DNA from: a virus
Lineage: Duplodnaviria > Heunggongvirae > Uroviricota > Caudoviricetes
IMG/VR virus record: IMGVR_UViG_648276653_000008
Reading direction: 5' to 3' (one strand)
DNA length: 4,733 bases
The translations under genes and the position numbers were made by a program. Below are positions 2,032-4,353 of the stretch, piece after piece. The notes under the pieces were generated by a model. It saw nothing but the letters and a program-made list of their open reading frames with translations. It ran no database searches and was not told the origin of the DNA. The first letter of the stretch is position 1; each line of letters starts with the position of its first letter.

Positions 2032-2679
2032 TCAGCGACCAATCACCACAACCTGACCACCGTCCCCTTCGTCTGCCGTGCTGATCTCCTGAGAAGCCAC
2101 CCGCGACCCCACGCGCATTTCACCGTACAGAACGGGCAGAACATTGCCCTGGGCAACCATGTTATCCAGTGAGGAGAAATAGGTGTTCTGCTTACCGTTA
2201 TCCGTTGTCTGTGTACGGGGAGTTCTGGCTTTCGGTGCCAGCATCTGCGCCACACCGCCAAGGATCATACTGGCCCCCGCAGCATACATGCCCGATAAAG
2301 CCGCAGCTCCCAGCCAGCCTGCAGGGTTCCACCACGCCACTGCAATCAGCGCCGCACCCAGCACCGCCTGAAACACACCGCCACTTTTGGCTCCTGCCAG
2401 ACGCGGCACGATATGGATCACAGCACCATTTGCCAGCGGTTCATTAAGACGGGCTGATAATTCATTTTCGCCTGCATCACGCCCGGCAATGCGCACCTGA
2501 TACCAGCCCTCATTCAGTTTCTGGCGAAACGACGGAAGCTGCGTGGCCAGCGCCCGGATGGCTTCGGCCCCCGTTTTCACACGAAGGTCGATGCGGCGGC
2601 CAAATCGTTGTAAATCCCCGTAAAGGCAGATGCGTGCCATGCCCGGTGACGCCAGAGGGAGTGTGTGCGTCGCTGCCAT
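2032..2679 (-). CDS. I: Tail tip assembly protein I (215 aa, stop included)
   Basis: Track ORF 2032..2679 (-), MAATHTLPLASPGMARICLYGDLQRFGRRIDLRVKTGAEAIRALA..., ending GDGGQVVVIGR; recognised as lambda gpI family. Its 5' end overlaps the 3' end of K by 103 nt in another frame, as in lambda. SD-like GAGAGG at 2691..2696. Confidence 0.9.
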   Translation of the reverse strand: MAATHTLPLASPGMARICLYGDLQRFGRRIDLRVKTGAEAIRALATQLPSFRQKLNEGWYQVRIAGRDAGENELSARLNEPLANGAVIHIVPRLAGAKSGGVFQAVLGAALIAVAWWNPAGWLGAAALSGMYAAGASMILGGVAQMLAPKARTPRTQTTDNGKQNTYFSSLDNMVAQGNVLPVLYGEMRVGSRVASQEISTADEGDGGQVVVIGR

Positions 2680-3320
2680 TTGTCTGTATACCTCTCTCGT
2701 TTGCTCAGTTGTTCAGGAATATGGTGCAGCAGCTCGCCGTCGCCACAGTAAATGGCGGCATGATTCGGCACCGATGAACCAAAACAGCACAGCAGCACGT
2801 CGCCAGGCTGCGCCTCTGTCAGTGGGACACGGTAAAAACCCGTTGCCTCCATATTGTCAAGATAGAGATTCTGACCGTGACGCCACCAGTCATCCTCGCG
2901 ATGAAAATCCGGCATCTCAATCCCCGCCAGATGATAAGCATCCCGGAACAGCGTGTAACAGTCCGTCACCCCGTGCTCAAAGCGCCGCCCGGTGAGATGC
3001 GGCACACAGCGGAACTTATGAATCGTCCCCCGGCAGACCAGCCACCACGGCAAATCACTCTGCACCTGCAGCCGCCGGTCGGCCTCACTCAGCCAGGGCA
3101 GACCACCGGGGTGGCTGTGGACCAGCGCCACAATCTCACCCTGCATTTCTGCCTGCAGCCAGTCTTCCGGCGACATACGGAAATACGCCTCCGGCTCACC
3201 GGAGATATTCACGCAGGGGAAATATCTTTCCCCCTCCGGCGTGCTTACCACGAAGCCGCACGACTCCGCTGGCGCACATCGCCGGGCGTGCGCCAGAATC
3301 GCTGATTCTGTCTGTGTCAT
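2577..3320 (-). CDS. K: Tail tip assembly protein K, JAB/MPN plus NlpC/P60 two-domain protein (247 aa from first ATG; alternative internal start at 3176 gives 199 aa)
   Basis: Track ORF 2577..3320 (-). Contains JAMM-like motif H68-S-H70-x7-S78-x2-D81 (VHSHPGGLPWLSEAD) and an NlpC/P60-like Cys (TDCYTLF, C121) with downstream His residues (NHAAIY, ELLHHI). Recognised as lambda gpK. First ATG lies 5 nt after the L stop. Confidence 0.88.
   Translation of the reverse strand: MTQTESAILAHARRCAPAESCGFVVSTPEGERYFPCVNISGEPEAYFRMSPEDWLQAEMQGEIVALVHSHPGGLPWLSEADRRLQVQSDLPWWLVCRGTIHKFRCVPHLTGRRFEHGVTDCYTLFRDAYHLAGIEMPDFHREDDWWRHGQNLYLDNMEATGFYRVPLTEAQPGDVLLCCFGSSVPNHAAIYCGDGELLHHIPEQLSKRERYTDKWQRRTHSLWRHRAWHASAFTGIYNDLAAASTFV
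3188..3192 (-). promoter_or_regulatory. Shine-Dalgarno (GGAGG) upstream of the internal K Met49 ATG at 3176
   Basis: Minus strand reads GCCGGAGGCGTATTTCCGTATG; GGAGG is the complement of plus cctcc at 3188..3192, with an 11-nt spacer. The first K ATG at 3320 has no comparable SD. Confidence 0.4.
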
Positions 3321-3325
3321 GGGAT

Positions 3326-4024
3326 TTACTGCGAAAGTTTGTTAATGGAAAGGAAGCCGCCAAAGTTGCCGACGTTATTGCGGAACTTACAACCGCTCAG
3401 GCATTTGCTGCATTTATCCTTCGTGATATCGGACGTCGGCTGGTCATATTCATCCGCGACTGCCGGACCGTGATAACCGCACTCATCACCGCGATAGGTC
3501 CAGGTGCAGGTGTTGGCCAGCATGATACGTCCCGGAAAAACAGCACCGTCCGTTTCCGTCGGCGTGGACAGTACAAAAGAGGCACTCACCGCGCTCAGTT
3601 CGCTGCACTGCTCAATGCGCCAGCGGCTGATCACCTCCTGCTCCGGATCGGCGTCACTGTTTCCGTTGACGAAGTTCACCGCATCCAGAAAACGGGCGTA
3701 AACCTTACGCCGGACCACCGTTCCGCCGACCAGACTCTGCAGATCTTCCGCCATCCCGGTGACCATACCGTACAGGTTAGAAACCGTCAGCGTGGGGCGC
3801 GTACTGGTGCCTTTGCCATTCAGTTCAAAACCACTCCCCTGAATGGGATACGGCTGATACTGTCGCCCCTGCCAGGTGACCGGCTCACCTTTTTCGTTCT
3901 GCTCATTACAGAAAAAATAACGTTCTCCACCGACCTCTGTCAGATCGATTTCCCAGAGCACCACGCTGGCCGACTGCTCCGCACGGGTGCATTCATTCAG
4001 TGTTTCCTGCCGGATATCCTGCAT
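3326..4024 (-). CDS. L: Tail tip protein L (232 aa, stop included)
   Basis: Track ORF 3326..4024 (-), MQDIRQETLNECTRAEQSASVVLWEIDLTEVGGERYFFCNEQ...; length and sequence match my recollection of lambda gpL. C-terminal Cys cluster (C173, C182, C205, C208, C212). Start overlaps the M stop (TGATG). Confidence 0.93.
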   Translation of the reverse strand: MQDIRQETLNECTRAEQSASVVLWEIDLTEVGGERYFFCNEQNEKGEPVTWQGRQYQPYPIQGSGFELNGKGTSTRPTLTVSNLYGMVTGMAEDLQSLVGGTVVRRKVYARFLDAVNFVNGNSDADPEQEVISRWRIEQCSELSAVSASFVLSTPTETDGAVFPGRIMLANTCTWTYRGDECGYHGPAVADEYDQPTSDITKDKCSKCLSGCKFRNNVGNFGGFLSINKLSQ

Positions 4025-4353
4025 CAGTTCACCACCTGTTTAAACTCTGCGCTGAACTCAACACGCAACATACTGACCTGCGACGACCATTTTGCGCAGG
4101 TCACCTTTATCTGCCTGTAACCATAAGGCGGCGTCCACAGAAAGGCCTTCCAGCCCCCGTGCTCAGCCAGAAACGACTCCAGCGCCGTGGCCTCCTCACG
4201 GGAGACAGACAGCGTCACGCTGTACGTTTTCAGGTCAGCGTTCAGCCCGGCAGGCGCACGCTGGGAATAGCCATCACCAAAGCGCACCTCCCTGACGGAA
4301 GGAGCAGATGTCACATCCATCCCGGGTTTCACTTTCCAGCGGAAGGTTTTCAT
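4024..4353 (-). CDS. M: Tail tip protein M (109 aa, stop included)
   Basis: Track ORF 4024..4353 (-), MKTFRWKVKPGMDVTSAPSVREVRFGDGYSQRAPAGLNADLKTYSV...; 109 aa as in lambda gpM. Strong SD GGAGG (plus 4360..4364) 6 nt upstream of the ATG. The ATG overlaps the H stop (ATGA). Confidence 0.92.
   Translation of the reverse strand: MKTFRWKVKPGMDVTSAPSVREVRFGDGYSQRAPAGLNADLKTYSVTLSVSREEATALESFLAEHGGWKAFLWTPPYGYRQIKVTCAKWSSQVSMLRVEFSAEFKQVVN
4029..4037 (-). promoter_or_regulatory. Shine-Dalgarno-like element for L (AGGTGGTGA), inside the 3' end of M
   Basis: Minus strand reads AACAGGTGGTGAACTGATG; one mismatch to the extended SD AGGAGGTGA, 4-nt spacer. Confidence 0.4.

Follow-up and report, generated by a model that had tools for sequence, protein, structure and literature searches.

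Gene K of a lambda-like phage most probably starts beside gene L and encodes a JAB-NlpC/P60 protein that the lambda reference truncates through one missing base

Results

Gene K lies in a lambda-type tail gene cluster

The stretch of DNA analysed here (the window; 4,733 nucleotides, IMG/VR record IMGVR_UViG_648276653_000008) carries lambdoid tail genes on its minus strand in the order M-L-K-I (Table 1). The I product of the window matches Lambda_tail_I, and K, situated between an L-type gene (PF05100) and an I-type gene (PF06805), occupies the position of a lambda-type K; its relatives are annotated with the same M-L-K-I order. The K frame is uninterrupted from the ATG at 3320-3318 to the stop at 2579-2577, encoding a product of 247 amino acids. 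Two open reading frames of the plus strand, at 3314-4120 (268 amino acids) and 2877-3305 (142 amino acids), lie antisense to L and K and give no sign of being genes; long antisense frames are frequent opposite GC-rich coding sequence.

Table 1. Location of the tail genes and of the features of K in the window
Feature	Position	Strand	Remarks
Gene M	4024..4353	-	
Gene L	3326..4024	-	
Full-length gene K	2577..3320	-	247 codons and TGA stop; tail tip assembly protein K, JAB/JAMM and NlpC/P60
Gene I	2032..2679	-	
L stop TAA (3328-3326) and 5-nt spacer ATCCC (3325-3321)	3321..3328	-	Proposed termination-reinitiation junction
Long-form start ATG	3318..3320	-	Without Shine-Dalgarno (SD) sequence; ATG kept in 76 of 76 unique close relatives
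Codons 1-48, left out by the 199-residue annotation	3177..3320	-	Helix 3-15 and strands 21-27 and 30-36 of the predicted MPN fold
P17-A-E19-S-C21-G22 motif	3255..3272	-	With predicted JAMM catalytic Glu E19 (codon 3266-3264); from conservation and ExCG alignment
GGAGG	3188..3192	-	Within codons P43-E44-A45; 11 nt before the Met49 ATG
G absent from J02459/NC_001416 (position 14267)	3186..3186	-	Third base of the Ala45 codon GCG
Met49 ATG, the classical 199-residue start	3174..3176	-	Probably an internal hydrophobic codon
H68-S-H70-x7-S78-x2-D81	3078..3119	-	Predicted zinc-ligand part of JAMM; from conservation
NlpC/P60 (C40) peptidase domain, residues 111-224	2649..2990	-	Pfam NLPC_P60 (PF00877), 50.4 bits
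Stretch shared by the end of K and the beginning of I	2577..2679	-	I is the ubiquitin-like presumed substrate

The first 48 codons encode part of a predicted JAB/JAMM domain

An earlier note on this DNA had proposed that, of two in-frame ATG codons in K, only the upstream one gives a complete JAMM/MPN metalloprotease, and profile matches, residue conservation and structure prediction all agree with that proposal. In Pfam, the long form matched Prok-JAB (PF14464) over residues 3-104, corresponding to profile positions 3-112 of 114, with 52.3 bits. The short form of 199 residues, beginning at Met49, matched profile positions 63-112 only and reached 23.3 bits, which is below the gathering cut-off of the family (25 bits; that of NlpC/P60 is 23 bits). 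Residues 1-48 by themselves matched profile positions 3-41 (E = 5.8e-5). Furthermore, PDB sequence searches paired residues 3-105 with P. furiosus JAMM1 and with two JAB proteins, 2kks and 2kcq; in these alignments the P-A-E-S-C-G sequence of the window falls on the E-x-C-G motif of the three.

The full JAMM motif (E19/H68/H70/S78/D81) is present in the long form, and the short form lacks E19. The H-x-H-x7-S-x2-D signature that the earlier note had read at residues 68-81 is an exact match, comprising H68, H70, S78 and D81. A glutamate completing the motif does lie upstream of Met49, as had been claimed, although it is E19 and not E20. The acidic pair E30/E31, to which the same role had been given, has to be discarded: the residues are actually E29 and E31, and they are conserved in only 1 and 17 of 97 homologues, respectively.

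These homologues come from an exhaustive HMMER search that returned 2,833 relatives, among which 97 full-length sequences with 35-61% identity were aligned. Their N-termini, which are gene-caller predictions, fall within a few residues of M1 of K, and the amino acid sequence of the 48-codon extension is conserved down to 35% identity. The most conserved columns of the extension, with the number of the 97 homologues sharing each residue, were H11 (81), A12 (79), P17 (89), E19 (96), C21 (91), G22 (97), N38 (97) and F47 (94). Downstream of Met49, H68, H70 and D81 were found in all 97 sequences, and S69 and S78 were kept in at least 90% of them. Among 74 close relatives, pN/pS was 0.25 in codons 1-48 versus 0.20 in codons 49-110, values which indicate that codons 1-48 are under purifying selection.

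Structure prediction gave a consistent picture. AlphaFold2 run on the single K sequence yielded a pLDDT of 38, and the model based on the 97-sequence alignment, with a pLDDT of 97.3 and a pTM of 0.91 for the long form, was used instead. In this model residues 1-48 are placed in the MPN core with a pLDDT of 97-98. Foldseek comparison with the PDB retrieved a JAMM group, comprising 2kks, PfJAMM1 (5ld9), AMSH, CSN5 and Rpn11, and an NlpC/P60 group, comprising MepS/Spr, LytE, CwlO and C. difficile autolysins such as Acd33800; the match to PfJAMM1 had an rmsd of 2.6 Å over 109 columns and a target-normalised TM-score of 0.66. The long form is thus confidently modelled as an MPN fold, whereas the short product would join only half of an MPN domain to NlpC/P60.

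The NlpC/P60 domain and the overlap with gene I

The NlpC/P60 domain is present in both the long and the short form of K. Its D120 shows no variation at all, and at least 90% of the sequences share C121, H187 and H199; from what is known of the family, we take the latter three to be the catalytic residues. The end of K overlaps the beginning of I, and in this overlap the I frame is constrained (pN/pS 0.16) and the K frame relaxed (1.28), which favours an I start at the ATG at 2679 or at the Met14 ATG at 2640. The start of I is disputed, since some records use a GTG that overlaps the K stop and gives products of 182 or 190 amino acids; the GTG start removes positions 1-25 of the Lambda_tail_I profile, which belong to the ubiquitin-like domain.

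The long start has no SD sequence and adjoins the stop codon of gene L

The sequence confirms the layout on which the earlier note had relied, with an ATG at 3320 located 5 nt past the L stop and devoid of an SD sequence, and a second, in-frame ATG at 3176 preceded by GGAGG. The calculated duplex energy with the anti-SD sequence was +0.7 kcal/mol for the long start versus -9.5 kcal/mol for Met49, whose SD-to-ATG spacing of 10-11 nt is tolerable. The mRNA around the two codons differs in the opposite sense. The 61-nt window at the long start, an A-rich region, folds with -7.2 kcal/mol, placing it at the 96th percentile of the least-structured windows of the M-I region, and its structure resembles that at the starts of L and I; the window at Met49 folds with -23.8 kcal/mol and, at the 9th percentile of the same region, is strongly structured.

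The junction between L and K is tight well beyond the window. All 76 unique close relatives have 4-5 nt between the L stop and the K ATG, and one of them keeps both the ATG and the spacer although its upstream junction sequence is unrelated. In divergent clades (junction loci with 32-99% identity to a homologue that is itself 51% identical), the K start of nearly all loci is next to the upstream gene's stop or overlaps it, with gaps of -8, -4, 2, 3, 6 and 9 nt, and is situated 14-19 residues ahead of the PxExCG motif. Most of these loci offer a single candidate start codon, several of them without an obvious SD sequence. Taken together, the tight L-K junction across divergent clades and the unstructured start suggest translational coupling. 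Hence, of the earlier proposal that translation begins at 3320 through coupling to L, the start itself is upheld, and the coupling is plausible: most likely, as we infer from these sequences, K initiation is coupled to L termination by termination-reinitiation, with the open start region taking the place of an SD sequence.

The second ATG raises the possibility of two isoforms, a full-length gpK translated through coupling with L and a shorter product of 199 residues and 23 kDa, containing only NlpC/P60 and initiated at Met49, each with a separate role. The anti-SD pairing of -9.5 kcal/mol in front of an in-frame ATG would suit such an internal start, and among the 76 unique close relatives the ATG is kept in 75 and GGAGG in 74. 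Outside this circle, however, Met49 is not a feature of the family. The corresponding column of the 97 distant homologues holds Met in 11, Ile in 64 and Leu in 14, so that Ile or Leu occurs in 78; among 55 enterobacterial relatives with 68-99% identity, Met is found in 25, Ile in 24 and Leu in 4, and Ile or Leu thus replaces Met in about half. GGAGG can be accounted for by the codons for Pro-Glu-Ala, the region is strongly structured, and the short product would hold half an MPN fold. Natural variants also exist among IMG/VR contigs: one (L039) has ATA (Ile) in place of the Met49 ATG, and two others (L044 and L055) have CTGAGG where the window has CGGAGG, and so a weaker internal SD-like sequence. 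With poor conservation of Met49, structured mRNA and such variants, this option of the earlier note finds no support, and we regard it as improbable. Were it true, a 28-kDa JAB-NlpC/P60 enzyme and a 23-kDa NlpC/P60 product would have distinct roles in tail-tip assembly, specifically in lambda-type phages. Translation from the ATG at 3320 is the reading that we prefer, and the Met49 ATG most likely encodes an internal hydrophobic residue.

A base missing from the lambda reference appears to underlie the 199-residue gpK

When the relatives were aligned, it was the lambda reference that proved to have a 1-nt gap. At this site the sequence of J02459/NC_001416 is GGAGGC-TATTTCCGTATG, against GGAGGCGTATTTCCGTATG in the window and almost all relatives. 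In the reference, the frame opened by the ATG at 14133 (MTQTES...GEPEA) encodes MTQTESAILAHARRCAPAESCGFVVSTPEGERYFPCVNISGEPEA, which equals residues 1-45 of the window, and then leaves the K frame; the annotated K, at 14276-14875, is out of frame with this ORF. The missing G therefore splits K of the reference into an upstream ORF of 76 codons (1134-1364) and the 199-residue K (1277-1876; both in coordinates within the segment 13000-15600 of NC_001416). When the G is restored, lambda gpK has 247 amino acids and 28.3 kDa, versus 23.0 kDa for the short form. The 199-residue annotation thus exists because the reference is one G short, so that the first 45 codons of K lie in a different frame; judged from these sequences, it was forced by a frameshift and was not a choice between two in-frame ATG codons. 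The earlier note had correctly given a length of 199 residues for lambda gpK, but its assumption that lambda offers the same two in-frame ATG codons fails, since those of the reference are out of frame.

Of 50,697 phage records only 4 have the version lacking the G, and not one of 5,426 complete E. coli genomes has it. The four records are J02459, its RefSeq copy NC_001416, OR474059 and OR974322. OR474059 equals J02459 apart from inserts and the ind1, cI857 and Sam7 markers, and its sequence marks it as an in-silico construct. OR974322, a chicken-swab 'isolate' with Sam7 whose gene coordinates equal those of the reference, is regarded here as control DNA whose assembly was guided by the reference. 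The G is found in 64 records, among them Lambda_AGU, the lambda of an MG1655 lysogen, DE3, lambda imm21, imm434 and h434 imm21, and every independently determined lambda sequence examined carries it at 14267. The MG1655-lysogen lambda differs from J02459 at only nine positions, including 138, where a G is lost, and 14267, where the G is gained; Lambda_AGU has the same two indels relative to J02459, and a commercial supplier reportedly lists both for its lambda DNA. Sequencing of ATCC lambda on the 454 platform gave the insertion at 14267 in 232 of 235 reads and, for position 138, the deletion in 36 of 37 (PMC3059205, supplement).

Two other accounts of the missing G were considered. A real mutation of the laboratory strain, comparable to the stf frameshift, is unlikely, as PaPa-lineage sequences with the stf frameshift carry the G and the only G-less records besides the reference and its copy are the construct OR474059 and OR974322, with its reference coordinates; the MG1655-lysogen lambda keeps the PaPa stf frameshift and yet has the G, which assigns the G to the laboratory lineage. 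Programmed frameshifting in lambda K becomes needless once the G is restored.

That K starts at Met49 alone, giving 199 amino acids and leaving the upstream 48 codons untranslated, is the classical annotation in J02459, NC_001416, the DE3 RefSeq and lambda imm434 and could draw on the SD sequence which Met49 has and the upstream ATG lacks, but the amino acids encoded upstream are conserved to 35% identity, the motif of the catalytic Glu among them, the pN/pS of these codons is low (0.25), the short form fails the Pfam JAB threshold and the annotation itself has been traced to a single missing base of the reference, so that we give this reading next to no credence.

Other positions of the reference also stand apart. 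J02459 differs from two independent lambda genomes, LC730321 and PV340536, at positions 138, 20661, 22444, 25662, 31016, 34934 and 45618, and lambda imm434 shares the differences at 20661 and 22444; these seven further differences are likely to be mistakes in the reference or else peculiarities of the stock that was sequenced. In LC730321 (Lambda_AGU) there is, in addition, an extra C at J02459 position 20833, in the orf-401/orf-314 region, which would presumably restore an intact stf side tail fibre gene, as in the Ur-lambda of Hendrix and Duda.

Annotation of K in databases and in the literature

Entries of 247 amino acids dominate the database clusters (12,883, 9,427 and 6,975 members), and several clusters of 199 amino acids originate from some gene callers. 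Current pipelines report a 247-residue 'C40 family peptidase' with a Prok-JAB domain. Among individual records, K is annotated with 247 amino acids in the mEp460 RefSeq, phage 434 and lambda PV340536. It is given 199 amino acids in the DE3 RefSeq and lambda imm434, and 211 in KT232076, although the long frame is open in each of these. In mEp332 (PV340541) it has 233 amino acids, and there the long frame is closed by a 1-nt deletion of its own. This deletion, in the stretch 681-770 of the record, affects a G5 run at K codons 29-30 (ORF nt 87) and may reflect either a sequencing error in the homopolymer or a genuine frameshift.

The biology of K is already known. A paper of 2003 counted lambda K, in the form of the 199-residue entry, among the JAMM proteins (PMC300881), and in 2006 protein K was described as JAB plus NlpC/P60 and predicted to act on the ubiquitin-like protein I (PMC1779556). 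A structural review of 2020, working from the 199-residue protein, described the peptidase domain (residues 52-182) and no other (PMC7291167). [quoted passage not shown] A literature search covering mostly non-subscription papers found none that links the discrepancy at 14267 to the annotation of K, the discrepancy appearing only in the raw variant table of PMC3059205.

Discussion

The reading that best accommodates these results, to which we assign a probability of roughly 90%, is that K starts at the ATG at 3320 and encodes a 247-residue protein with two peptidase domains, coupled to L in its translation, and that the 199-residue gpK is a product of the G missing from the reference. Ribosomes terminating at the L stop, 5 nt upstream, would reinitiate at the SD-less K start, aided by its unstructured, A-rich surroundings, and translate a protein of about 28 kDa. 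Its N-terminal domain is a predicted JAB/JAMM zinc isopeptidase built on E19, H68, H70, S78 and D81, and its C-terminal domain a predicted NlpC/P60 cysteine peptidase with C121, H187 and H199. Met49 and GGAGG would then be ordinary internal codons, and the annotators of the 1982 reference, faced with a sequence from which the G was missing, would have fallen back on the first downstream ATG with an SD sequence. During tail-tip assembly the JAB domain would, according to the literature cited above, remove the ubiquitin-like N-terminal domain of gpI.

The gene K of the window is an ordinary one, and the practical value of the analysis lies in curation: in the reference of the best-studied phage, a deubiquitinase-like domain is probably truncated by one missing base. 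The truncated gpK of 199 residues has entered published analyses (e.g. PMC7291167), and several newer lambda-derived records copy the short start despite an open long frame. Anyone cloning, modelling or mutating gpK in connection with gpI cleavage should use the 247-residue protein.

As regards lambda, the window is not lambda itself, its DNA being approximately 95% identical, and its closest match is phage mEp332, with 96.5%. The gene I product has 215 amino acids in the window versus 223 in lambda. The M-L-K-I order and the pair of domains are the same, and lambda gpK, once the G at 14267 is put back, matches K of the window at every one of residues 1-147; the 8 substitutions among the 247 residues all lie after residue 147. 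Unlike in the lambda reference record, the long K frame of the window is intact.

The N-terminal domain of K shares the E-x(n)-H-x-H-x7-S-x2-D motif with the JAMM/MPN+ enzymes AfJAMM, P. furiosus JAMM1, Rpn11, CSN5 and AMSH. In AfJAMM the residues are E22, H67, H69, S77 and D80, a spacing close to that of K. The likeness extends to the partner, as the neighbouring gene encodes a presumed substrate of the ubiquitin-like beta-grasp type (PMC1779556). In contrast to the JAMM/MPN+ metalloisopeptidases, the JAB domain of K is fused to an NlpC/P60 peptidase, and K belongs to virion tail-tip assembly, whereas those enzymes serve the proteasome, the signalosome or sulfur-carrier pathways. The proposed substrate of K is likewise different, being a linear fusion, formed by the ubiquitin-like and structural domains of gpI, and not an isopeptide conjugate. 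The C-terminal domain, for its part, has the fold and the conserved Cys and His residues of E. coli MepS/Spr (NlpC/P60, C40), but neither a signal peptide nor a cell-wall-binding domain was seen in K, which sets it apart from peptidases of the MepS/Spr type.
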